From the sequence record OM313460: a stretch of 52,782 nucleotides of DNA, one strand, 5' to 3'. Below, in pieces: positions 10,924 to 47,902 of this stretch. The stretch comes from Escherichia phage vB_EcoM_IntR. Made by a program: the position numbers and the translations under genes. The notes beneath the pieces are model-generated. The model saw nothing but the letters and a program-made list of their open reading frames with translations. It was not told the DNA's origin and did no database searches. The first letter of the stretch is position 1. Every line of letters starts with the position of its first letter.

Positions 10924-11637
10924 ATGGCACTTAAAACAGTTGTAACTGACCTTACCGAAGTTGATGAAGGCTTCCGTGGCCTGTATATCAAAGACGAAGC
11001 ATCTGGCGCATTCCGTTTGGACGTTGAACCAGACGAAAAAACGCTGAAAGAATTAGAAGACCTGCGCAAAGAAAAACAGCGTATGGAACAGCACACCAAA
11101 AAGCTTCTCGAAGAAAAGAAAAAAGAAGCTGAACGTGCTCGCCTGGCTGAAGAAGAACGCGCACGTCGTGAGCGTGATGTTGAATCTCTTGAGCGCTCTA
11201 TCAAAGAGAAACATCAGGCTGAACTGGAACAGTATACTAATCGTCAGGCACAGCTGCAAGCTCAGCTGGAAGCGCAAATGGTTGATAACCTGGCGCTGAA
11301 CCTGGCTAACCAACTCTCTGACACCCCGGCACTTATTATGCCACACATCAAGGCCCGACTGCGCGCTCAGGAAATTGATGGTAAGTGGCGTACTACTGTC
11401 GTGGATGTTATGGGTAACCCGACTGCTACAACGCCAGATGAGCTAGTGGAACATATGCGCGCTGATAAGCAGTTTGCACCTCTTGTGCGTGGAACCAAGG
11501 CTGGCGGTGGCGGTGCCAACGGCGGCGGAGCTAATCCTGGTGGGAACGGCGGTGGCGAACAGCACACTTTCGGAGGCGGGGACGACCGCATAGCACGTGC
11601 TCGTGCTAAAATCCAAAACACACAATGGGGCAAATAA
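10924..11637 (+). CDS. scaffolding protein
   Basis: Charged coiled-coil (E/K/R-rich) with Gly-rich C-terminus; located directly upstream of the major capsid gene. Confidence 0.6.
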   Translation: MALKTVVTDLTEVDEGFRGLYIKDEASGAFRLDVEPDEKTLKELEDLRKEKQRMEQHTKKLLEEKKKEAERARLAEEERARRERDVESLERSIKEKHQAELEQYTNRQAQLQAQLEAQMVDNLALNLANQLSDTPALIMPHIKARLRAQEIDGKWRTTVVDVMGNPTATTPDELVEHMRADKQFAPLVRGTKAGGGGANGGGANPGGNGGGEQHTFGGGDDRIARARAKIQNTQWGK

Positions 11638-11640
11638 TTT

Positions 11641-12618
11641 ATGTCACTGTATATTTTTAACGAACAAGTACGTTCTACCGCCACCGAACGGGTCGACCAG
11701 GACGTACAGAAGTTCAACGAAGCTTCTGCAGGTACCCTTATCCTGGGTAACCAGTACGTAATCGGTGATTACGTTGAGCAGGCAATGTGGCAGCTGGTTG
11801 ACGGTATCGCTACTCGTCGTAACGCTTACGCAGGCACCAACAAAGTTGATGCGCAGACTCTGGGCCAGATTCTGGACCGTTCTGTTAAGATCGACGGCCG
11901 TGTTGGTCCTCTGAACATTACCGGTACTATGATGCGTCGCATCGGTGCAGGTGATACTGAACCAGCAGCTGTTGTTGCTGCACAGGCTTCTGCTGCGATG
12001 TTCCAGGACTACCTGAACACCACTGCTGCATGTCTGGTAGCTGCTATCGGCGCAAACGCTGATGTTGTTCTGGACGTAACTGCAGGTTCCGGTGCTGCTG
12101 CAAACATCACTATGCAGAACCTGAACAAAGTAAACGCTAAGATGGGTGACCGTTCTCAGCAGATTCGTGCATACATCATGCATTCTACTGCGTTCCACTC
12201 TCTCATCGACCAGGCCATCAACAACACGGAACACCTGTTCCAGATTGGTGACCTGAACGTATACAAAGACTTCCTGGGTCGTCGTTATGTCGTTTCCGAC
12301 ATCCCGGCTCTGGTTGATGGCGCCGGTGCTTCCGCTAAGTACCGCACTCTGGGTCTAACCCCGTCTGCTGCAATCGTTCAGGTCGGCGGCCTGTACGATA
12401 TGGTTACCTCCGAGCAAACCGGTGGTGAAAACATCCTGCGTCAGATGCAGGGTGAATACGACTTCAACGTGTCGCTGAAAGGCTACAGCTGGGTCGGTCA
12501 CAAAGCTGGTCAGTCTCCGACTGATGAAGACCTGGCTGCTCAAGCGTCCTGGTCTAAAGTTGCGACTTCCAACAAAGACACCGCTGGTGTTATGCTGCTG
12601 GCTAAGTCTGCAATCTAA
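11641..12618 (+). CDS. major capsid protein
   Basis: 325-aa Ala/Gly-rich protein after the scaffold gene; followed by a strong terminator. Confidence 0.7.
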   Translation: MSLYIFNEQVRSTATERVDQDVQKFNEASAGTLILGNQYVIGDYVEQAMWQLVDGIATRRNAYAGTNKVDAQTLGQILDRSVKIDGRVGPLNITGTMMRRIGAGDTEPAAVVAAQASAAMFQDYLNTTAACLVAAIGANADVVLDVTAGSGAAANITMQNLNKVNAKMGDRSQQIRAYIMHSTAFHSLIDQAINNTEHLFQIGDLNVYKDFLGRRYVVSDIPALVDGAGASAKYRTLGLTPSAAIVQVGGLYDMVTSEQTGGENILRQMQGEYDFNVSLKGYSWVGHKAGQSPTDEDLAAQASWSKVATSNKDTAGVMLLAKSAI

Positions 12619-34548: not shown

Positions 34549-36516
34549 TTAGTGTGCCTCTGCCCAGTTACTTTCTATCTTAGCATCAGTAAGAACAGGT
34601 ACACGAAGCGGTAGTACAGTTTCCATGACCCGTACGAAATCATAGAACCCATCTTCTGCTTGCTTACCAGACGGTAGAGAGAAGTTAAGCTCATCGTGTA
34701 CAGTCAGGCGAGGTACGCCAATCACGTCAAAGTAACCGTCTTCATACCCTTTCAGCATTGCAGACTTCATCTGGTCTGCTGACGACCCTTGCAGCACTCG
34801 GTTGATTGCCTTGTGGGTGTCTGCCAGTTTAATGTTCGGGCCATACTCCTGACGTGCTTCTTCAAATGGCAAAGGCATCTTCCCGAATCCACCACGCTTT
34901 GGTACCCACTTATTGAACCACGTCTTCCGGCCCATAAAGGTTTCTACGTACCCCTGGCTATAACATAAATCTTCATAATGCTTCATGGTAGCACCAATGA
35001 ATGGTGCGCCCTGATGGTACGCCTTCAGAACAGGTTCTGCTTCTTCAGGCGTCATTGCTAACTTACGGGCAAGAGCATTAAGCATCATGCCATATAGCAA
35101 ACCAAAGTTGATGGTCTTGGCTGGTTTACGCTCTATAACGTGACCTGAGGCTTCCTTGATAATATCGACCATAACATTGTGGTAATCTGCTTCCGGGTTA
35201 GCCGCGAAAATTGCTCGTAACTCATCAGCGCCCGGGCCGACTGCAAAATGCGCCATGAATCGATATTCAATTTGGGCGTAGTCTGCTGATCCCCATCTGT
35301 GTCCGACATCCGGTACGAAACAAGCACGAAGGAGTGGTCCCAGTATTTTGTGTCGAGACGGTATATTCTGCAGATTAGGGTCAGATGAGCTAAACCGACC
35401 ACTAACGGTTCCACCGTCATCACCGCGCATTTGATGGAATTGACCGTGAAGGAAGCCATTTGTATTCATCCCCAATATATAGCCACGAATAAACGTGGAC
35501 TGGATTTTTTCATAAGACTTAATCTCAGACACCAGTTCCGCAAACGGATGGTGCAAGCCTGCTAAGAAGTCTGCCGTAAACGACGGATTACCCGCCGCTG
35601 TTTTGAAGTACTCCAGACCTAAATGGTCAAATGCAAGAGCTAAGTCCGGACCTGAGTTAACGTTAATGTTAAAGCCAATCTGGTCTTTAATCTGCTGGTG
35701 CATTTTCCTTATTTCAGCGCTAAGCGTATCATCCGCCTCTTTGGCTTTATCAAGGTCAACACGCACACCTGCAAAACGCATCTTAAGCATTAATGGAATA
35801 AGCTTGCACTCCATATAGAATACATCTGTTAAACACCAGCGACTTAACAAAGGCCACTGGGCTTTGATAATGTGTATTGGTAAGTCGGCGTCAGATTCAG
35901 CATAGTAACCCACAAGACGAGGAGGCGTTTTGTAGATGTACTTTCTGGCTTCACCTGTTGGCTTACAGCCATAAGCATCTGAAATCCATTGGTACATCTC
36001 GGCTGAGTCTTTACCTTCGCCTACATACTTTCGTCCAAGTCCTTCAAGTGCAACACGCGCGCCTGGGTCAAGTAATGCTTCCGCGAATTGTACATCCATG
36101 CACAATCCTTTAACTTCCACGCCTTCTGCTGCAAGCCAGCCCAAGTCATATGTGATGTTAGCACCGACTTTAACTTGGTTAGGTCGCGAGAGTTCGAGCC
36201 GAAGCCAACCAAGTACTTCCTCAGCTGGAAGGTTATCCTCTTCGCCGAGCTCGTGTCTGATTGGGTAGTAAGCTTTGAAGCCGTTGTCCGTAGCGATACT
36301 AACTCCAACGATATGACCCTCCCTCCTGGCCCAACCACTACCATTTGTATCCATCCCTGGGTCGTATGTTTCACAGTCAAGACCGATAATCTTTGCAGAA
36401 GACAAATCCGGGTAATGCGCGCGCGGCCGCCATCCAGTATCCCTGACGTATGGTATAGGACGGTTGATAGGTTTAACATTCTTTGCACCTTCGAAGCTAT
36501 CGAATAAAAAGCTCAT
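34549..36516 (-). CDS. DNA polymerase, family A (with 3'-5' exonuclease domain)
   Basis: Exo I motif IGLDCETYD; Pol motif A DYAQIEYRF, motif B RKPAKTINFGLLYGM, motif C LTVHDEL. Confidence 0.85.
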   Translation of the reverse strand: MSFLFDSFEGAKNVKPINRPIPYVRDTGWRPRAHYPDLSSAKIIGLDCETYDPGMDTNGSGWARREGHIVGVSIATDNGFKAYYPIRHELGEEDNLPAEEVLGWLRLELSRPNQVKVGANITYDLGWLAAEGVEVKGLCMDVQFAEALLDPGARVALEGLGRKYVGEGKDSAEMYQWISDAYGCKPTGEARKYIYKTPPRLVGYYAESDADLPIHIIKAQWPLLSRWCLTDVFYMECKLIPLMLKMRFAGVRVDLDKAKEADDTLSAEIRKMHQQIKDQIGFNINVNSGPDLALAFDHLGLEYFKTAAGNPSFTADFLAGLHHPFAELVSEIKSYEKIQSTFIRGYILGMNTNGFLHGQFHQMRGDDGGTVSGRFSSSDPNLQNIPSRHKILGPLLRACFVPDVGHRWGSADYAQIEYRFMAHFAVGPGADELRAIFAANPEADYHNVMVDIIKEASGHVIERKPAKTINFGLLYGMMLNALARKLAMTPEEAEPVLKAYHQGAPFIGATMKHYEDLCYSQGYVETFMGRKTWFNKWVPKRGGFGKMPLPFEEARQEYGPNIKLADTHKAINRVLQGSSADQMKSAMLKGYEDGYFDVIGVPRLTVHDELNFSLPSGKQAEDGFYDFVRVMETVLPLRVPVLTDAKIESNWAEAH

Positions 36517-37511
36517 CAGTCCCCTCTCACATACGCAATTACAACTGTACGAGTTGAGTTTTCCATTTTGAGCGCCTGACTACCCAGTCCTATTCTTTCC
36601 ATGCCTTTAGCCAGTTTACTCATCTGACTAATAACACAGTTGAACGGTTTACTAAACTTAGTCGACTGGAACTTAATGTCGACGGACATCTTTGGAATAA
36701 TCTTATCTGGTAAGTCTGCCTTTGCAGTTGACTCGCCTGTTATCTCCAGAATAGCCTGACCTTCGTCGTACCCAGTAAGCTGGTCCATGACTTCCAGGAA
36801 CTCAGGAGTGATGGCCTGCATATCCATTTCCATATTGAAGAACTTCGATACGTCTGGCCATTTGGCTGCGAGTACCGGAGCATCCATCTGTACGCCATCC
36901 GCAAAGCCGAAGAACATCTGGCCGCGGGCGTATCCTACACTTGTGGGTTCCATCTTCAGCTTAACCAGGGCCTCAAGCATTGGTTTGGCTATGGCACATT
37001 CAAATTCAAAATCCACGTTCAACTTCTCGCGTATCATATACTTACCGTTAGTGGCGTAAGCATAACCATCGCGCAGAAGTAAAGATGTTGCCCATACCTG
37101 CGGTGCTTCGTTAGGTACCCATTTGGCTAAGGCAGTTAATACCGGGAGTAATTCGCCATGTGCTGAATACCAGTTGTTAACTGTAGCAAGCGGCGGTATT
37201 GGTTCATTAAGCGCTTGCATTCTTGTTTTAAGTACACCTGCTGTGACTGTGAGGTTTCCAGCGGCTGTAATGTTAAAAGTAATCTGTTCAGTTCTTGCCG
37301 CATTAACGGCCTTACGAAATGATTCAGCATCCACTTGCAGGTCTGGAAATCCTTTACATGGCGCTCGTAGTAATACGTTCTTGTAGTATGAATGGATTGT
37401 TCCGTCTGCAATCCATATTTTGCCCATAAGACCACTATCAGTATACTTGATGGGACGAGCTTGTTGAACGGCAGTCTGTATTTGTTTGGTGTCATAGTTA
37501 AACTTGCTCAT
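36516..37511 (-). CDS. hypothetical protein adjacent to the DNA polymerase gene
   Basis: 331-aa ORF; start follows a stable hairpin; function not recognisable by eye. Confidence 0.5.
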   Translation of the reverse strand: MSKFNYDTKQIQTAVQQARPIKYTDSGLMGKIWIADGTIHSYYKNVLLRAPCKGFPDLQVDAESFRKAVNAARTEQITFNITAAGNLTVTAGVLKTRMQALNEPIPPLATVNNWYSAHGELLPVLTALAKWVPNEAPQVWATSLLLRDGYAYATNGKYMIREKLNVDFEFECAIAKPMLEALVKLKMEPTSVGYARGQMFFGFADGVQMDAPVLAAKWPDVSKFFNMEMDMQAITPEFLEVMDQLTGYDEGQAILEITGESTAKADLPDKIIPKMSVDIKFQSTKFSKPFNCVISQMSKLAKGMERIGLGSQALKMENSTRTVVIAYVRGD

Positions 37512-37518
37512 AGTATAA

Positions 37519-37534
37519 CGGGGCCGAAGCCCCG
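37519..37534 (-). promoter_or_regulatory. stable intergenic hairpin (UUCG tetraloop on transcript strand)
   Basis: CGGGGC-CGAA-GCCCCG on the + strand, so CGGGGC-UUCG-GCCCCG in the leftward transcript, between the ThyA-family and downstream genes. Confidence 0.5.
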
Positions 37535-37541
37535 CTCCATC

Positions 37542-38426
37542 TTATACGGCCATTTGGAGTTTGATGTTTGGCATTGGTTTGTACTTCTCAACCATTGGCG
37601 TAACATCGGCAGGAGTGAAGTCAAACACTGACACGTCACAAATTGCATTAATGTCAGGACGACCTTCAAAGTTAGTGTCCAGTGTAGTATCAGAATTGCT
37701 TACGATACGTTGCAGGAAAATCTTTGCCGCATCGATATGATTCTGATAGATGTGATAATCACCCAGCGTAACAGTCATATCCCCTACACCAACACCCAGC
37801 TCAGCAGCAATGGTAATCTGCAACATCTGATGCAGCAGAATGTCATGAGGCAGGCCCAGAATAACATCCGCGCTACGCATATGGAACATCAGCTCTAATT
37901 CATTACGGTTGTTAATGAACAGCTGAAAACCATGGTAACAAGGCGGAAGGGCCATGGCGTCCATCTCTTGTGGGTTCCATGCCGTAACGTAAGCCCGGCG
38001 GTCGGTAGGTTTAACCTTCAGCGTTTCAATAACATCTTTAAGCTGGTTAGTGAGAACACCATTCTTATAGAATGGCTTAATCCACTGCACGCCGTACACA
38101 GGACCTAAGTCACGGTTGTCTGGTGTACCCCAACGTTTGTTTGCATCCTGCAGATTACCTTCCCACCAGTTGCAGCCAAAACCTTTGAGCGTATCGACAT
38201 TTGAAATGCCGTTGATAAAGCAATAAAGCTCAGCAGCAACAGCCTTGATGTTAACTGGTTTAAATACCGGTACCATCAGTTTGTTGTCCTTGAAAGCCAG
38301 CTTAAACGCTGTACCAAAACAACGGCGTGTACCAACACCTGTACGGTCTTCGACATCTTCACCCTTACGCAGGATAAACGAAATGATGTCGCTGTAAAGA
38401 GAATCGACAGTGCTGTATGTTTTCAT
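37542..38426 (-). CDS. ThyA-family pyrimidine C5-modifying enzyme, predicted dCMP-specific (hydroxymethylase or methyltransferase)
   Basis: DRTGVGT, DLGPVYGVQW, MALPPCYHGFQ (catalytic Cys), RSADVILGLPHD; Asp replaces the Asn177-equivalent and Tyr replaces His147; AAGGAA RBS. Confidence 0.75.
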   Translation of the reverse strand: MKTYSTVDSLYSDIISFILRKGEDVEDRTGVGTRRCFGTAFKLAFKDNKLMVPVFKPVNIKAVAAELYCFINGISNVDTLKGFGCNWWEGNLQDANKRWGTPDNRDLGPVYGVQWIKPFYKNGVLTNQLKDVIETLKVKPTDRRAYVTAWNPQEMDAMALPPCYHGFQLFINNRNELELMFHMRSADVILGLPHDILLHQMLQITIAAELGVGVGDMTVTLGDYHIYQNHIDAAKIFLQRIVSNSDTTLDTNFEGRPDINAICDVSVFDFTPADVTPMVEKYKPMPNIKLQMAV

Positions 38427-39019
38427 TAAAACAGTTCCTTTTGGGCCGGGTTAACGTGTGCGTCGATGATTGCCTGAATGTCAGGTGCTTTCCATCCTTC
38501 AGGCTTAACAATATCCTGACCAGACTTATGCTTACTGTTGCTTGCATCAGGCTTAGCGCGTTCTTTCGCCATGTTAGCAGCCTGTACCGCATCCCATGCA
38601 TCATCAAGTGGCCAGTTGTTGTTTGCACACCAGGTAATCAGGTGGATAATTAACTGTGCCAGACGGTCGCAATGAGTGTCTTCAGTATCCTTAACGTATA
38701 CGATAAGACCTTCAGCATCAAAGCGGTCCATAAATCCGCATGGCGTAGTCAATAGAATCGGATACTCAAATTCGTTGGTGAACCATGCTGTCTGGTCATA
38801 CAGGTATAACGTACCTGCAGCAATATAGATTAAGTCTACAATACCGTCTAAGAATCCAGCTTTATCGCCTTCTTTCTTAGCTTGCTTAATTTCATCCATC
38901 TCCTCAATAAGACGGTCATAACGAAGTTTGAACTCTGGCTTGCCGCCTTGACTAATCGGCTTGAGGTCAAACTTCTCGTGGAAAGCTGTAACACCTGCAG
39001 CAATTTTACTGAATCGCAT
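38426..39019 (-). CDS. MazG-like NTP pyrophosphohydrolase (candidate dCTPase/dUTPase)
   Basis: LIEEMDEI (EExxE-like) and LDGIVDLIYIAAG blocks; AAGGAG RBS; stop overlaps the ThyA-family start. Confidence 0.5.
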   Translation of the reverse strand: MRFSKIAAGVTAFHEKFDLKPISQGGKPEFKLRYDRLIEEMDEIKQAKKEGDKAGFLDGIVDLIYIAAGTLYLYDQTAWFTNEFEYPILLTTPCGFMDRFDAEGLIVYVKDTEDTHCDRLAQLIIHLITWCANNNWPLDDAWDAVQAANMAKERAKPDASNSKHKSGQDIVKPEGWKAPDIQAIIDAHVNPAQKELF

Positions 39020-39404
39020 TTCTTAACTCCTTACAAACAGTTTCGATAAACTTACGTTTTGTTTCAGTAGACCAGATTATATGTCGGGCCTTCTCTAATA
39101 CGTCCCAGCGGTCTTTACCCACAGGAAAGGGAACAATGAAGAGGCCGGTGCGAGATATACGCTTGATAAACGGGAACTTGCAACGCATGGTTGTTTCAAA
39201 TTTGATAAAGTTATTTTGCGCTTCGCGTGTAAATTTAACCTTATCAAATTCATGCTCGAGTGTTTGAGCAAGGTTGCATACCTCATGGAAAGAGGATGCA
39301 GGCAGGTAGTCTTCACGACCGACAGTGTTTACGTAGTCGATTTGACCTTCAAGACGAAGTATCCAAATTCTATAATAAGCTTCAGCGACACGTTGTAGAT
39401 TCAT
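39006..39404 (-). CDS. hypothetical protein
   Basis: 132-aa ORF with GAGGAGAG RBS, first gene downstream of the 39431-39459 promoter. Confidence 0.5.
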   Translation of the reverse strand: MNLQRVAEAYYRIWILRLEGQIDYVNTVGREDYLPASSFHEVCNLAQTLEHEFDKVKFTREAQNNFIKFETTMRCKFPFIKRISRTGLFIVPFPVGKDRWDVLEKARHIIWSTETKRKFIETVCKELRNAIQ

Positions 39405-39430
39405 TGTATCTCTCCTCTAAAAGATAACTT

Positions 39431-39459
39431 ATTATACCACATCACTCTCTAGTGGTAAA
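39431..39459 (-). promoter_or_regulatory. sigma70-type promoter on the minus strand (TTTACC-N17-TATAAT)
   Basis: Reverse complement of 39431-39459 reads TTTACC-17 nt-TATAAT. Confidence 0.55.
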
Positions 39460-39474
39460 GCACTTTTTATGCTT

Positions 39475-39509
39475 CGGGTAAAATAAAAAGGACCAGCGTT
39501 AACTGGTCC
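39475..39509 (-). terminator. rho-independent terminator (minus strand)
   Basis: GGACCAG-CGTTAA-CTGGTCC hairpin followed on the minus strand by TTTTTATTTT. Confidence 0.7.
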
Positions 39510-39741
39510 TTATGGCAGGGTGGCGTAAGGAGATACAAGGAATCGCAGTTATGCAACCAGGCAGCGCATATGAGATTGGCTTAAGGACTGACCGACTTAA
39601 TCCCCGCGACGAGTCGAAAGGAGGTACCATCAAGTAGCCAATCACATATGCGTTACTTGCTGTGTGCTCTTACCACAGAAAGTATATAGCGTTACACTTA
39701 TCACACAGTTGTAGTGGCAAAAGCACACAGCAAGTACAACC

Positions 39742-39828
39742 TTAGTTGTGGTGTCTTAGCACCTGAGTTATTGTGGATAACCTGCACCCGACGGGTGTCA
39801 AAAAGATACGCCAAAACACCACAACTAA
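39742..39828. repeat. 13-bp perfect inverted repeat pair flanking a DnaA-box-like 9-mer
   Basis: TTAGTTGTGGTGT at 39742-39754 and ACACCACAACTAA at 39816-39828; TGTGGATAA (reverse complement TTATCCACA) at 39772-39780; palindrome CACCCGACGGGTG at 39785-39797. Confidence 0.5.
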
Positions 39829-40079
39829 AATTGTGACCGCCGTCTACACCAGGCGCCTGGGGTCAAGGTAGCGAGCCAATACCCTTTTCAGCGTCGGAGG
39901 AATCGAACCTCACACATCACGGCTTTTACCAAATCTCGGTCAGCGAGCAGAATTGAACTGCATTCACTGGACACCCTCACTGTTTCAACACACCAGGCTT
40001 AATTGATTGTTGATAAGAAGAGAGATGTAAGGATGTCCATTGAATGCACCTCCGTAGAGGTGCGTTCAGATCAGCGCTA

Positions 40080-40547
40080 TTATTCAGCAACTTCTTCGTT
40101 GTCGCCTTCGATCGCGCCAGCCAGTTTAGCAGCTTCAGCTTTAGCAGCTTCTGCTTTCTGGCGAGCTTTTTCAGCTTTCTCTTCAGCTTTGCGAATCTGC
40201 TCAGCAGCTTTCGCTTCGGCTTTTTCAGCTTTGATGCGAGCACGCTCTTCAGCTTTACGCTGTTTTTCAGCAGCTTTAGCAGCATCGCGTTCTGCTTTAG
40301 CGGTATCAACGCGCTTAGCCAGAACTTTACCAGTGGCTTTACGCCAGTAGGTCAGCTGGGAAGAAACAGTACCACGGGACATTTCGGTAGTGGCAACAAC
40401 TTCGTCCATAACATCGGAGCTGGACTTGCCTTCTTCATGGGCTTTATCAGCCAGGTCCCATACGTAACGTGCGCCAGTACCAGCTGCCGGATACAGTACG
40501 CCGTTAACTTCTTCTTTACCAGTTACAAAAGTCAGTTTCTCGCTCAT
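40080..40547 (-). CDS. hypothetical protein with C-terminal Lys/Ala/Glu-rich single-helix repeat
   Basis: ATG at 40545-40547 with GAGGAAAA RBS; C-terminus KAEKAEAKAAEQIRKAEEKAEKARQKAEAAKAEAAK; overlapping + strand ORFs are low-complexity mirror frames. Confidence 0.5.
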   Translation of the reverse strand: MSEKLTFVTGKEEVNGVLYPAAGTGARYVWDLADKAHEEGKSSSDVMDEVVATTEMSRGTVSSQLTYWRKATGKVLAKRVDTAKAERDAAKAAEKQRKAEERARIKAEKAEAKAAEQIRKAEEKAEKARQKAEAAKAEAAKLAGAIEGDNEEVAE

Positions 40548-40653
40548 AATTTTTTCCTCGTCTACAGGGCTTAATGTTTGTTCGTTACGTGAGTTAATAT
40601 ACGTCATTTAAAAGAGAGTGTAAACACCTTTTTTAAACTTTTTTCATTAGTGT

Positions 40654-40881
40654 TTAGAAAGGCACATCATAGTCAAAAAGTTTACATCCGGAAGACAGGA
40701 CTGCCGGCGGTGGTGTTTTGCCTCCGGATAATAGACAACCTCCTGCCTGAAAGCTACGGCAGTTCGCACAGCTCATATCCTGCAGGTATATAATAAGCTG
40801 CCGGCGAACGTGCCGAGGCAAAGCTTTAGCCTGGGTTGCTACCCGTTCAAATAGTTCTCTGTTATCGAGCGCCATAGCCAT
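40654..40881 (-). CDS. hypothetical Cys-containing small protein
   Basis: 75-aa ORF overlapping the helicase 3' end by 20 nt. Confidence 0.3.
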   Translation of the reverse strand: MAMALDNRELFERVATQAKALPRHVRRQLIIYLQDMSCANCRSFQAGGCLLSGGKTPPPAVLSSGCKLFDYDVPF

Positions 40882-42532
40882 TTCCCCAGTCGTAGTTCAT
40901 GATTTGTGGGTAGGGCCGTTTAATCCATACCTTAATACGCTTAGGAATGGCCAGCTCACCCTTACGGCGGATAAACTCGTCGCATGTTTCAGGCGGTTCG
41001 GTTCCTGCAGCATTACGCCACCAGGCATCTGCCATTTGTTTAGCATTACCATGGGCCTCAATATTTACCCAAGTTGTGTACACTTCCAGGTTTGAGTAGT
41101 ACACAACCTTTATACTGTCAGGTCGTCCTTGCTTCTGGAATAAAGAATAGTTTACCAGCGTAACATCTTTATCCACAACACGAAGCTGGCCATTAGTCAT
41201 TACTTCTTCTTCTGACGAAGTGAATGCAATAGCAGGTCCGTTAACTGTAAATTCAAATTCATGTCCGCACATCGGATATACACCATTCTCATCTGGCGTA
41301 CTTCCTTTAGCCGGATGCTTACACGTACGGGCGGCATAACCACTTACCTGGTGGCAGATAGGGCACTCTTTACCGCCAGGTGTTTTCTCTGACCGTTTCT
41401 TTTTCTTCTTACCAAGACGTGGCGGAACAGCCGGGTCATCAATAGGCCCAAGGTCAATGGTGTTAGATGTAAAGTCCATGACAAGACAGTCATGCTTACC
41501 AGGCGCTGTACGTAACCCTCGACCGAGTATCTGCACCCACAAAGCAACAGACGTGGACGGGCGCAAGATGCCGAGCATATCAATCTCAGGATAGTCAAAT
41601 CCTGTTGTCAATACGTTTACGTTTACACAGACCCGTGCTCGTCCGCTTGTAAACTCTTCCAGCGCCGTTTCACGTTCTTTCTTTGTAAGACCGCCATGCA
41701 CAACTACAGTCTGCCACCCTCGCAGATTAAATTCGTCTGCTATGTTGTGGGCGTGTTCAACACTTGTGGCGAATACAAGAACGTGGTTCCTGTCTTTACC
41801 GTAGTGCATCATCTCGCGGATGGCTGCAACTGTTATGCTGTGTTGGTTGGCTACCTTCTCAAGCTCTGACGGTATATAATCACCCATCCTTTCGCCAACA
41901 TTACTGGTGTCAATCTTGGTTAACACTTTCTTGTTGACCAGGCGTGACAGGAAGCCTTCATTTACCAGTCTGGTGAATGCGTCAGGTGTTGTAAGGTCAT
42001 AGCAGATGTCGGTAAATATACCGCAGTCAAGTAAGTGACCACCCGCCAGTCGATACGGAGTTGCTGTAAGGCCTGTTACCTTTACCTTAGGATTAAGCTC
42101 TTTGAAATGAGCAATAACCTTACGGTATGTTGTTTCAGACTTCTCAGGAACAAGATGGGCTTCGTCAATGAATATAAGATTGAACTTACCTGCTTCTTCC
42201 AGGTTCTTAATAATCGACTGTACTGACGCTACAACGATACGACCTGAAAAGTCTTTGTGTCCTGCGCCTGAAGAGTAGATTGATACTGGTGCTTGCGGCC
42301 AGTGGCGAACAATCGCTTTGGCGTCTTGTTCTACCAGCTCCTTGACGTGTGTCAATATAAGAATACGCTGACGTGGATAGCTGGTAAGAATATCCTTCAT
42401 CAACATACCAAGCACAGGTGATTTACCTGAACCTGTAGGCATGACAATAAGTGGATTACCACTATAAGAATTGAAGTACGACCACCAAGCTGTGACCGCT
42501 TCTTTTTGATACCAGCGAGCTTCAAAAGCCAT
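40862..42532 (-). CDS. SF2 DNA helicase (DEAH-type)
   Basis: Motif I MPTGSGKS, motif II FIDEAH, motif III TATP, motif VI QILGRGLR; C-terminal Cys cluster CPICH...C. Confidence 0.8.
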   Translation of the reverse strand: MAFEARWYQKEAVTAWWSYFNSYSGNPLIVMPTGSGKSPVLGMLMKDILTSYPRQRILILTHVKELVEQDAKAIVRHWPQAPVSIYSSGAGHKDFSGRIVVASVQSIIKNLEEAGKFNLIFIDEAHLVPEKSETTYRKVIAHFKELNPKVKVTGLTATPYRLAGGHLLDCGIFTDICYDLTTPDAFTRLVNEGFLSRLVNKKVLTKIDTSNVGERMGDYIPSELEKVANQHSITVAAIREMMHYGKDRNHVLVFATSVEHAHNIADEFNLRGWQTVVVHGGLTKKERETALEEFTSGRARVCVNVNVLTTGFDYPEIDMLGILRPSTSVALWVQILGRGLRTAPGKHDCLVMDFTSNTIDLGPIDDPAVPPRLGKKKKKRSEKTPGGKECPICHQVSGYAARTCKHPAKGSTPDENGVYPMCGHEFEFTVNGPAIAFTSSEEEVMTNGQLRVVDKDVTLVNYSLFQKQGRPDSIKVVYYSNLEVYTTWVNIEAHGNAKQMADAWWRNAAGTEPPETCDEFIRRKGELAIPKRIKVWIKRPYPQIMNYDWGNGYGAR

Positions 42533-42590
42533 TTAACGTCTCCTCATTAACTTCATATATTATACCACTTCCTTGTGGTGATGTATACTT

Positions 42591-43469
42591 TTATTTTAAG
42601 GAAAGTTTAACGGGCTTCTCATCCTGTGGGAAGACATCAGCAGGGCGATACTCATCGCAAGCCGCTAATTGCTCTTCGATTGTTTCGAGTTCTTTCTGGT
42701 GCTTGTTGCAGTACCACACTTTGCCCTGAAGCGGTTTACTGTAATGGCAGGTTCTGCAGTTCCTGTCTGGCATTGCTCCTTTGTGGCACAAGTGATGGTA
42801 TTCGCACATCCCTGGTTTGCACTCCCACCAAATAGGCGATTCAGAAATCTTCGGCATATCCAAACCAGATTCCGCATATACAACAGCCTCCGCTTTACTC
42901 AGTTGTATGTCGCTTTCCAGTAAGTCAATCTCGACCACTTCAAAATACATCTCGTCAGTGTTCTTGTTGATTGCAATATACACAGCTTGATTCAGCTTAA
43001 GCTTCCGCATGTACACCTGCATCTGGGCGTAGTGTACCGGCTTACTTGCTTTAACAGACTTGAGCTTGACTAACTCTTTAAACGACTTATCGCCATGCGT
43101 CTTGAATTCAGCAAGTGCCCATACGCCTTTGTATTTAATTACACAGTCACAAGACCCAGAGAAGATGTCATTGAAGTCGTGTATGCGCCATTGCTTACCA
43201 GTCTTGGGATTGACGTCCAGCACTTCGTCACATACGGAACGAAGCCACTTTACAATTCTGCTTTCTTCAAGGTTACCACGTTCAAACAGACGAAGTTGCT
43301 TAGCTGTAAACTTCTCCTTGAACGACCAGTGCAGAACGTGCCAAAGATAGCGATAGCAGTTGTGTCCTATCTGCGATGCTCCAAGATGCCCGCGTCGTTC
43401 TTCTCTTTCATGGGCTTCGACTATCTTGATGTCAATACGTTTCTGCAGGTCGTTAAACGGACTGGGCAT
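42591..43469 (-). CDS. RecB-family (Cas4-like) PD-(D/E)XK exonuclease with Cys cluster
   Basis: ATG at 43467-43469 with GAGGAG RBS; DCVIKYKGVWALAEFK (D...ExK), QMQVY (QhxxY), C-terminal CKPGMCEYHHLC...CRTC. Confidence 0.6.
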   Translation of the reverse strand: MPSPFNDLQKRIDIKIVEAHEREERRGHLGASQIGHNCYRYLWHVLHWSFKEKFTAKQLRLFERGNLEESRIVKWLRSVCDEVLDVNPKTGKQWRIHDFNDIFSGSCDCVIKYKGVWALAEFKTHGDKSFKELVKLKSVKASKPVHYAQMQVYMRKLKLNQAVYIAINKNTDEMYFEVVEIDLLESDIQLSKAEAVVYAESGLDMPKISESPIWWECKPGMCEYHHLCHKGAMPDRNCRTCHYSKPLQGKVWYCNKHQKELETIEEQLAACDEYRPADVFPQDEKPVKLSLK

Positions 43470-47615: not shown

Positions 47616-47902
47616 TTACGTTTACCTTTACGTTTGTGTAGCGGAGTATATGTTTTCTTTGGTACGCCAAACATGGCCGCATATGTACCGACTTCTTTCT
47701 TTGTTGGCTTATCCACAATTTCGTCAATCACGATTAAGTCATGGTCGATATTGCGAAAGACTTCAGCCGCTCTTTTCTCAACAGGAGTAAAGTCAATAAC
47801 CAGCTCTTTGCCTATCAGGCTTTCTTTGAGCTTGTCAAATAGCCATTTGTCACGCGGACCAGGATTGCCCATAAACATAACACGCATCTGCTTATTGTCC
47901 AT
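47612..47902 (-). CDS. hypothetical basic protein
   Basis: 96-aa ORF with Lys/Arg-rich C-terminus. Confidence 0.45.
   Translation of the reverse strand: MDNKQMRVMFMGNPGPRDKWLFDKLKESLIGKELVIDFTPVEKRAAEVFRNIDHDLIVIDEIVDKPTKKEVGTYAAMFGVPKKTYTPLHKRKGKRK

Follow-up and report, generated by a model that had tools for sequence, protein, structure and literature searches.

A candidate structured non-coding RNA with a tRNA-like core in Escherichia phage vB_EcoM_IntR as well as in unrelated phages

The Escherichia phage vB_EcoM_IntR genome (sequence record OM313460) was analysed as a single stretch of 52,782 nt, hereafter the window, and the segment between positions 39,510 and 40,080 was studied, where a structured minus-strand RNA with a core resembling parts of a transfer RNA (tRNA) is probably encoded. 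The window represented a Rosemountvirus genome (BP63/swi3-like), which in this region showed 99.6% identity to Escherichia phage PiR, and all the genes around the segment were located on the minus strand. On that strand, a helicase gene (40862-42532) was followed by a gene for a 75-aa protein, the KAE-repeat gene and the gene-free stretch, and then by the genes for a 132-aa protein (39006-39404), a MazG-like pyrophosphohydrolase, a thymidylate synthase, a clamp-like protein and a family A DNA polymerase, the neighbours being assigned by PHROG searches to replication and nucleotide metabolism. A promoter-like site preceded the KAE gene, an intrinsic terminator closed the segment, and a strong sigma-70 promoter of the next gene (39431-39459), carried as an annotated promoter in phages BP63 and S144, marked the end of the unit; therefore, the segment belongs to the KAE transcription unit as its 3′ part. 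In four groups, referred to below as clades, the same two genes were separated by a gap of 590-675 nt: Rosemountvirus, Loughboroughvirus (ZCSE2, S144 and SE4), the group of KE25, fHy-Eco03 and SE1_KM, and the lineage of the IMG/VR contig L178. The terminator was kept in all of them, and the changes in its stem were compensatory, including those in the KE25 clade.

In the initial annotation, the segment, bounded by the stop of the KAE gene and a minus-strand terminator, had been described as lacking open reading frames (ORFs) of at least 60 aa. Inside it, only mechanical ORFs of 30-48 aa were indeed found, the KAE gene was located at 40080-40607, and the coordinates of the terminator were corrected from 39489-39509 to 39488-39511. 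The KAE repeats also gave rise to two off-frame ORFs (39977-40309, minus; 40003-40350, plus), which reached about 100 nt into the right edge of the segment. In related genomes, annotators had placed differing small ORFs on differing strands here, and the clades are separated by indels of 1-2 nt, so that a conserved reading frame is ruled out. The sequence signals reported earlier were also recovered, namely a DnaA-box 9-mer (TTATCCACA) at 39772-39780 on the minus strand, an inverted repeat with perfect 13-nt arms (TTAGTTGTGGTGT, 39743-39755, and ACACCACAACTAA, 39817-39829) spaced 61 nt apart, and a palindrome (CACCCGACGGGTG) at 39785-39797. The inverted repeat was found to extend to 25-nt arms with 84% complementarity. 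The chance expectation given for the 9-mer (about 0.4) agreed with the computed value of 0.38 per window, yet three perfect copies were present in the window.

The RNA of the minus strand folded with a minimum free energy (MFE) of −238.2 kcal/mol (z = −8.85 vs. shuffles), which was better by 36 kcal/mol than that of the plus strand (−202.6 kcal/mol, z = −5.76), and it is on the minus-strand RNA that selection acts. The resulting architecture was modular, with an RNA of about 590 nt comprising a UNCG hairpin, four long helices and a core of 133 nt (Table 1), and G.U pairs were found in helix I4, in P_A and in the three-way hairpin that carries the DnaA-box 9-mer (hereafter the box hairpin). The UNCG hairpin was invariant in the four clades apart from its loop, which is UACG here and UUCG in most relatives. 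Helix I4, whose 3′ arm ends at the GAAU preceding the core, had 13 pairs by RNAalifold, 5 of them with compensatory changes over the four clades (e.g. GGAC/GUCC to GAGC/GCUC). Similarly, 7 of the 33 RNAalifold pairs of the box hairpin showed compensatory changes, one U-A pair had become U.G in phages emiel and birk, and the inner hairpin CACCC/GGGUG was replaced by CAUCC/GGAUG in other clades. Hairpin 2 was found in the Rosemountvirus and Loughboroughvirus clades, with mostly invariant pairs, changes mainly to G.U and 2 compensatory pairs only by RNAalifold; hairpin 3 appeared in Rosemountvirus only, was variable within the genus and was absent from the Loughboroughvirus clade. A 9-mer (GCCUGGUGU in the RNA sense) was observed twice, in the apical loop of I4 (39990-39998) and in a small hairpin inside the core (39846-39854); the I4-loop copy was kept in all clades, and the two copies could allow an alternative pairing with CCAGGC, although such a pairing was not conserved in ZCSE2.

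Table 1. Features of the segment and its surroundings, with positions numbered along the window and sequences in the RNA sense unless a promoter is described
Feature	Position	Strand	Description
KAE-repeat gene	40080-40607	minus	175 aa; predicted helix-turn-helix and long helix; from the ORF list; upstream gene of the transcription unit
Promoter-like site preceding the KAE gene	40624-40596	minus	promoter scan
UNCG hairpin	40042-40067	minus	GCACCUC-UACG-GAGGUGC; about 12 nt past the KAE stop codon; RNAalifold
Helix I4	39959-40048	minus	22-nt arms; inverted repeat I4; pyrimidine-rich apical region with conserved GCCUGGUG
Core tRNA-like motif	39834-39966	minus	133 nt; covariance model R1, 81.6 bits, E ~3e-15
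T1 arm	39947-39961	minus	GCAG-UUCAAUU-CUGC
Linker	39943-39946	minus	UCGC
P_A 5′ strand	39938-39942	minus	UGACC
D-loop-like bulge	39924-39937	minus	GAGAUUUGGUAAAA (core bulge GAGAUUUGGUAAA)
P_B 5′ strand	39919-39923	minus	GCCGU
T2 arm	39897-39911	minus	GAGG-UUCGAUU-CCUC
Clade-specific insert		minus	CUCGCUACC (copy at ~39868-39876) and hairpin CCAGGC/GCCUGG
P_B 3′ strand	39839-39843	minus	ACGGC
P_A 3′ strand	39834-39838	minus	GGUCA
Three-way hairpin (box hairpin)	39739-39831	minus	22-bp outer stem, the inverted repeat of the initial annotation; RNAalifold
Inner hairpin in the three-way hairpin	39785-39797	minus	CACCC-GUC-GGGUG, the palindrome of the initial annotation
Apical stem-loop	39767-39781	minus	GUUAU-CCACA-AUAAC; contains the DnaA-box 9-mer (39772-39780)
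Hairpin 2	39654-39736	minus	stem of about 21 bp and small apical hairpin; inverted repeat I1
Hairpin 3	39558-39659	minus	24-nt arms; inverted repeat I3; MFE folds of the window and swi3
3′ tail	39512-39557	minus	pyrimidine-rich with CUCCUU-type tracts; inverted repeat I6
Intrinsic terminator, transcript end	39488-39511	minus	terminator scan: 10 pairs, then TTTTTATTTT
Sigma-70 promoter of the next gene (39006-39404)	39431-39459	minus	TTTACC, 17-nt spacer, TATAAT, extended -10 TG; promoter scan

The main content of the segment, overlooked in the initial annotation, was the conserved core with its two T-arm hairpins (39834-39966). Its copies shared a 5′ plan consisting of AAU, the T1 arm (a stem of 4-5 bp and a loop U-U-C-R-A-N-Y), UCGC, the P_A 5′ strand UGACC and a near-invariant bulge GAGAUU(N)UGGUAAA, and a 3′ plan in which a P_B 5′ strand of free sequence was followed by a variable insert, the P_B 3′ strand and the P_A 3′ strand GGUCA. 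The insert usually held T2, a small hairpin and a YNGGUGNA stretch. The two long-range helices P_A and P_B thereby held together the bulge and one or two T-arms. Downstream of P_A there was either a tract of U, or a hairpin built as UGACAG-stem-GGAAAGAC-stem, or else the tRNA that came next; the U-tract ended about half of the compact copies, directly after P_A, and was lacking at that place in the window. The UGACAG hairpin, a second conserved element (e.g. GACAGCCGGGAAAGACCGGC), was observed in contigs L136, L138, L163, L165, L188, L204, L151 and L153, mostly from GC-rich phages, and was absent from the window.

About 35 nucleotides of the motif were near-invariant across genomes of 40-63% G+C, while the strands of P_A covaried (UAACC/GGUUA, UUACC/GGUAA, UCACC/GGUGA and UGAUC/GAUCA). 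The T-arms followed the consensus G53, U-U-C-R-A-N-Y, C61, with an invariant closing G-C pair (48/48 for T1 and 42/42 for T2) and covarying stems, and RNAalifold recovered T1, P_A and T2 unaided from a plain MAFFT alignment. In an alignment of 25 sequences cut by position, with a 3′ anchor picked by eye that favours P_A but not the then position-fixed P_B, 94.3% of the cells could pair vs. 76% when shuffled and 30-47% when slid; moreover, both-sided changes were found in 10 of the 14 pairs, and all five P_B pairs covaried. An alignment of the 48 distinct sequences made with the covariance model built here (R1), and hence biased toward the structure of that model, had 93.3% pairing cells and changes on both sides in 15 of the 18 pairs (165 cells). 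In contigs L151 and L153, T2 was followed by a second UCGC-N4-CGAGAUU unit, and in the window by a weaker copy of that unit (CGACGCUGAAAAGGGUA); therefore, the motif looks like tandem units of a T-arm and a D-loop. Two further pairings were considered and dropped, namely a closing helix between 5′ GAAU and 3′ AUUU or the U-tract, the topology of which conflicts with helix I4 in the window, and a local hairpin CUCG-CUGAC-CGAG, which is invariant, so that covariation offers no test of it, and which may coexist with P_A as a pseudoknot.

The distribution of the core extended far beyond the four clades. The exact word CUGCUCGCUGACCGAGAUU, a 19-mer of the core, appeared in IMG/VR contigs that were otherwise unrelated to IntR, both AT-rich and GC-rich, and one of its copies lay directly after two tRNA genes. 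An exact-word scan together with three degenerate-word scans yielded about 50 distinct copies, and R1 recognized 49 loci (48 distinct sequences) with scores of 34-102 bits in uncultivated phages of 40-63% G+C, chance T-arm matches reaching at most 19 bits. No motif was found by R1 in 890 kb of unrelated viral control DNA, where the best score was 19.2 bits. A scan of the collection with a 14-mer around the DnaA box was unspecific, and its 120 chance loci were reused as negative-control DNA.

The core was also linked to tRNA genes. A same-strand tRNA gene ended 0-1 nt before the start of R1 in 17 of 40 loci, the upstream tRNAs being of the kinds Phe, Gln, Met, Ser and Thr. Furthermore, several copies belonged to arrays that comprised 5-15 tRNAs, the contigs reaching 241 and 412 kb, and many were placed between two tRNAs. 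Two peculiarities of such arrays were observed. In those of rumen-type jumbo phages (L191, ~11620-11700; L198, L149 and L200), the motif was followed by an unusual tRNA-like sequence (CACCUAUGGUGUAACGGUAGCAC...GGUUCGAGUCC) without an ARAGORN call, and tRNA-like genes with a two-base anticodon (tt), listed by ARAGORN as ‘tRNA-???’, were found in L144, L149, L191, L197 and L200.

Among deposited phage genomes, the motif was detected at blastn sensitivity in the Rosemount, Loughborough and KE25 groups only. A single contig out of 185,579 species-representative genomes carried it (L190, JAEWER010000021.1, from a metagenome-assembled genome of a ‘Bacillota bacterium’), with a core of 133 nt and 81.6 bits, the same as in the window, so that it is read as Rosemountvirus DNA. 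Of 5,426 E. coli genomes, only two ‘plasmids’ of about 53 kb matched (NZ_JBVNBN010000003.1 and NZ_CP067310.1), with cores 98.5-99.3% identical to that of the window, and these appear to be phages of the same type filed as plasmids. As far as these scans reach, the motif is phage-specific.

Within the phage family, the 5′ domain and the core were 84-86% identical between Rosemountvirus and Loughboroughvirus, and the flanking genes 58-85%. A deletion of 142 nt, with GGT microhomology at its ends, was found in Salmonella phage rivia (L011, MT074438, ~2290-2340); it joins the bulge UUUGGU directly to GGUUAUCCACA and takes away the core's 3′ half together with the box hairpin's 5′ half, the box being retained. 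It represents either a natural mutant or an assembly error. The window was colinear with phage swi3 (MT768059), with equal length (52,782 nt) and equal coordinates, and over 6.8 kb (36400-43200) 279 substitutions and no indels separated the two, mostly at third codon positions. No difference was found across 39733-40271, vs. about 4% in the surroundings, a pattern that might stem from mosaicism or recombination, or from another version of the record.

The KAE gene was syntenic in the four clades and always preceded the RNA. Its protein matched PHROG 28664 (function unknown), no Pfam family was assigned to it, and a sequence search of the PDB returned no match. A single-sequence AlphaFold model of low confidence suggested that three helices, like a helix-turn-helix, make up the N-terminal part and that a single very long helix follows at the C-terminus. 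For the homologue in fHy-Eco03, the annotation records its detection in virions by mass spectrometry.

Taken together, the best explanation, to which a probability of roughly 0.6 is given, is a structured non-coding RNA of about 590 nt on the minus strand, which forms the 3′ part of the KAE transcript and carries the tRNA-like core of a widespread phage RNA family. The segment would be transcribed with the KAE gene up to the terminator at 39488-39511. Judging from the resemblance in sequence, the GG of the bulge may dock into a T-loop in the way known for G18 and G19 of tRNA, which would give a compact mimic of the tRNA elbow. In IntR, which has no tRNAs, the core could be freed by cuts in the flanking helices of at least 20 bp (I4, the box hairpin and hairpin 2), whose size is that of RNase III substrates. 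Its release in other phages would proceed through the tRNA-processing machinery, because the motif starts there 0-1 nt after a tRNA. Once free, the core would work in trans: as a stable RNA, it would occupy a factor of host or phage origin that reads the T-arm or elbow of tRNAs. Such a role as decoy or scaffold is advanced only tentatively, at somewhat less than even odds. With slightly more reserve, the core of 100-135 nt may be regarded as an unrecognised phage-wide class of tandem T-arm and D-loop units, a bare tRNA elbow, lacking acceptor and anticodon, that would capture or disarm a host factor reading the elbow. Rosemount-type phages, which carry no tRNA genes, would have retained this element only, inside a processing scaffold of 590 nt. 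Candidate targets would be, for example, a tRNA-directed defence nuclease, RNase P or an enzyme modifying the T-loop. The approximately 35 near-invariant nucleotides argue for one conserved molecular partner or for a precise three-dimensional fold.

Several points weigh against this interpretation. Hairpins 2 and 3 show little covariation, and the two alignments of the core lean toward the pairs sought in the ways described above. The contact between D-loop and T-loop is suggested by likeness to tRNA, and since the bulge is invariant, covariation cannot probe it. Clustering of the 998 ORFs neighbouring the motif loci revealed no protein family common across lineages, so that a conserved protein partner encoded nearby was dropped and none can be named, which points to a host partner or to an activity of the RNA only. 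Finally, should the deletion in phage rivia be genuine and no error of assembly, plaque growth does not depend on the core; an RNA that is non-essential for plaque formation would suit an accessory function, for example in counter-defence or fitness.

Other explanations were weighed against the same observations. The segment could be no more than a cis-acting 3′ untranslated region (UTR), with hairpins serving as barriers to RNase III and exonucleases and as insulators that set the stability of the KAE mRNA, and with a tail that, on read-through transcripts, covers the next gene's ribosome-binding site or else acts as a 3′-UTR-derived small RNA. The position of the UNCG hairpin directly past the stop codon, the four helices of at least 20 bp and a layout of seed and terminator like that of Hfq-type small RNAs are in line with this. 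In addition, with a single mismatch in 13-15 nt, the tail stretch UUCCUUGUAUCUC (39530-39542) complemented the region that comprises the Shine-Dalgarno sequence and start of the next gene (39400-39412). The energies of the tail/start duplex were better than those of shuffles in each of the four clades, with z between −1.1 and −3.5, though the sequences differ. However, the start of the next gene ranked just 5th among the 72 start regions of the window by this complementarity, a specificity too moderate for the tail to be retained as a specific antisense regulator, and a role in cis only leaves unexplained the near-invariant core nucleotides common to phages of other gene content, where they stand alone or between tRNAs. 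It is therefore an unlikely account of the segment. A second stretch complementary to the start of the next gene (39401-39418) was observed at 40016-40033, in the loop of I4. Improbable, too, is a core acting as catalyst or sensor, either as a self-cleaving ribozyme freeing the 3′ end of the upstream tRNA or as a riboswitch formed by P_A/P_B and a U-tract terminator. Near-invariance of some 35 nt across 40-63% G+C, a beginning 0-1 nt past tRNAs and a U-tract directly after P_A in about half of the compact copies would suit such an activity, but no Rfam ribozyme or riboswitch matched at E ≤10, no consistent downstream gene family was found, many copies have a tRNA on either side, and P_A of the window copy is not followed by a U-tract. 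Remains of a decayed tRNA or protein gene, now without function, are hardly credible: T-arm-like hairpins without a cloverleaf and small-ORF annotations that differ between genomes might be expected of decay, yet this is already contradicted by the covariation, the evolution being strongly purifying and compensatory, conservation equals or exceeds that of the neighbouring genes, and the indels of 1-2 nt between clades exclude a conserved frame.

The initial annotation had offered two readings, a replication origin and a long structured 3′ UTR or non-coding RNA. The latter is strongly supported by a strand-specific fold beyond shuffles, by helices that covary in four phage clades and by a core common to unrelated phages, and a functional structured RNA rather than an origin is accordingly held to be very probable. 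At an origin, host DnaA would bind the 9-mer, and the hairpins or the transcript would start DNA synthesis, the transcript serving as an R-loop or primer comparable to ColE1 RNA II or the T4 origins. The perfect box is conserved in three clades, the segment is part of the replication module, flanked there by the genes for the helicase and the DNA polymerase, and the deletion of phage rivia stops exactly at the box, leaving it intact; furthermore, the three perfect copies of TTATCCACA in the window exceed the 0.38 expected, and none of 100 shuffles reached three. These copies lie at 39772-39780 (minus), 41169-41177 (plus, in the helicase gene) and 47709-47717 (plus), and an A follows all three (TTATCCACAA). 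Nevertheless, the segment holds one perfect box, with no relaxed TTWTNCACA elsewhere in 39400-40150, no AT-rich unwinding element (no 40-nt window in the segment exceeds 68% A+T) and no iterons, and the second box at 41169 is conserved in part of the genus only. The cumulative GC skew, weak evidence in a phage, turns with the direction of transcription at ~33 kb and at ~4 to 50 kb, and not at 39.5-40 kb. One half of the box itself lies in the stem and the other in the loop of a hairpin, the arms of which covary and accept U.G on a single strand only. Moreover, the box hairpin has moved upstream of the core in the KE25 clade, L178 has no box hairpin despite retaining synteny, the UNCG hairpin, I4 and the core, and in unrelated phages the core sits between tRNA genes. 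The R6K ‘A site’ is a priming signal formed by a DnaA-box hairpin, which needs a duplex box. The segment resembles DnaA-box origins and this site in having a perfect TTATCCACA inside an inverted repeat, and differs from them in its single box, the absence of an unwinding element, a box that is half loop in the fold and a hairpin whose position varies between clades. An origin is thus not supported here and is very improbable.

If the structured RNA with a tRNA-like core is the correct explanation, several consequences follow for these phages. Rosemount- and Loughboroughviruses are widely proposed for the biocontrol of Salmonella and E. coli, and they carry a conserved tRNA-like RNA despite descriptions stating ‘no RNA genes’; the RNA lies in their largest intergenic region, which has been annotated with inconsistent small ORFs. 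Through the core motif, these phages are connected with jumbo and uncultivated phages whose composition is very different, and phage rivia may be a natural deletion mutant of it. If the partner were a host factor recognising tRNA, an RNA-based strategy would be added to the contest between phages and tRNA-targeting defences, and structural biology would gain a minimal natural mimic of the elbow.

As regards known systems, the comparison with tRNA draws on established knowledge of its D-loop pattern. T1 and T2 have the features of a T-arm (a 4-5 bp stem, G53-C61 closure and a 7-nt loop), the bulge A-G-A-U-U-N-U-G-G-U-A-A-A matches the D-loop pattern A14, R15, Y, Y, G18, G19, U, A21, and the motif occurs inside same-strand tRNA arrays. 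Unlike a tRNA, the motif has no acceptor stem, CCA context or anticodon arm. The search for tRNA genes and RNA families suggested in the initial annotation was negative: ARAGORN called 0 tRNA genes in the window, the Rfam tRNA model gave no match at E ≤10 on the segment or on a compact homologue, and no family of Rfam 15 (including ROOL, GOLLD and other large RNAs) matched at its gathering score in the window and 7 related loci. At E ≤10, Rfam returned only hairpin look-alikes of microRNA families and a T-arm match to mascRNA, with no ribozyme, riboswitch, ROOL or GOLLD. A permuted or intron-bearing tRNA and a two-piece transfer-messenger RNA were dropped, as neither a complementary acceptor strand nor a CCA was present. 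ROOL and GOLLD are large ornate phage-associated RNAs of several hundred nucleotides with many helices, often near tRNA genes. The RNA described here is likewise phage-borne, several hundred nucleotides long and rich in helices, but its conserved part spans just ~100-135 nt, and its long outer hairpins are limited to the phage family of IntR.

Phage T4, too, encodes small stable RNAs without a known function in its tRNA cluster, namely rnaC and rnaD (species 1 and 2). Like the motif, rnaD (L211, 5054-5172, minus) starts 1 nt after a tRNA, that for Arg, with AAUG, and it contains UCGCUACCGGUAAG; these elements resemble the lead-in AAUG of the motif and its UCGCUGACC...GGUAAA, a likeness that may be coincidence. 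In contrast to the motif, rnaD has no T-arm, and rnaC has a single 3′ T-arm and an acceptor-like end. With filters off, the best score of R1 in T4 (66-78 kb) was 12.4 bits and did not fall on rnaC or rnaD, nor did blastn give a match, so that homology to these RNAs was rejected.

The nearest described RNAs to the core are the YrlA RNAs, Y-RNA-like tRNA mimics with a T arm, an acceptor-like stem-loop and a D arm, which are encoded beside Ro60 and are also phage-borne (Chen et al. 2014, PMC4201824). Both are tRNA-sized non-coding RNAs occurring in phages, with a canonical T-arm followed on the 3′ side by a D-loop-type GG element, no anticodon loop and near-invariant stems. In YrlA, however, an acceptor-like stem-loop lies between T and D and the D hairpin is local, as seen in mycobacteriophage Bxz1, whereas in the core 4 nt (UCGC) follow T1, and the strand before the GG bulge, UGACC, pairs with a distant 3′ GGUCA. 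Moreover, YrlA adjoins a Ro60/TROVE gene (within ~4 kb, same strand), and none was found at IntR, where Pfam detected no TROVE domain in the KAE protein or the 9 window ORFs of at least 446 aa, the smaller ORFs not being scanned. The sequence CGAAUG before T1 was rejected as a Ro60-binding motif (GNCGAAN0-1G), as it varies among copies (GUAAUG, CUAAUG, AGAUG and others). As a positive control, the YrlA model RF02553 matched the copy upstream of the Ro-like gene in Bxz1 (32.5 bits, E = 1.7e-4; family gathering score 69). The same model gave no match to the IntR RNA at E ≤10, and R1 gave none to the YrlA of Bxz1; homology was rejected on this failure of the models to cross-match. Literature searches by sequence, phage-genus and tRNA-mimic terms returned no description of the IntR RNA, and the papers on Rosemount- and Loughboroughviruses report no tRNA genes and state no RNA genes. 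The motif is thus an RNA family that Rfam lacks: in these tests it fell outside tRNA, YrlA, T4 rnaC/rnaD and all the Rfam families, yet it uses the building blocks of tRNA, and its core is filed among the tRNA-mimicking non-coding RNAs.

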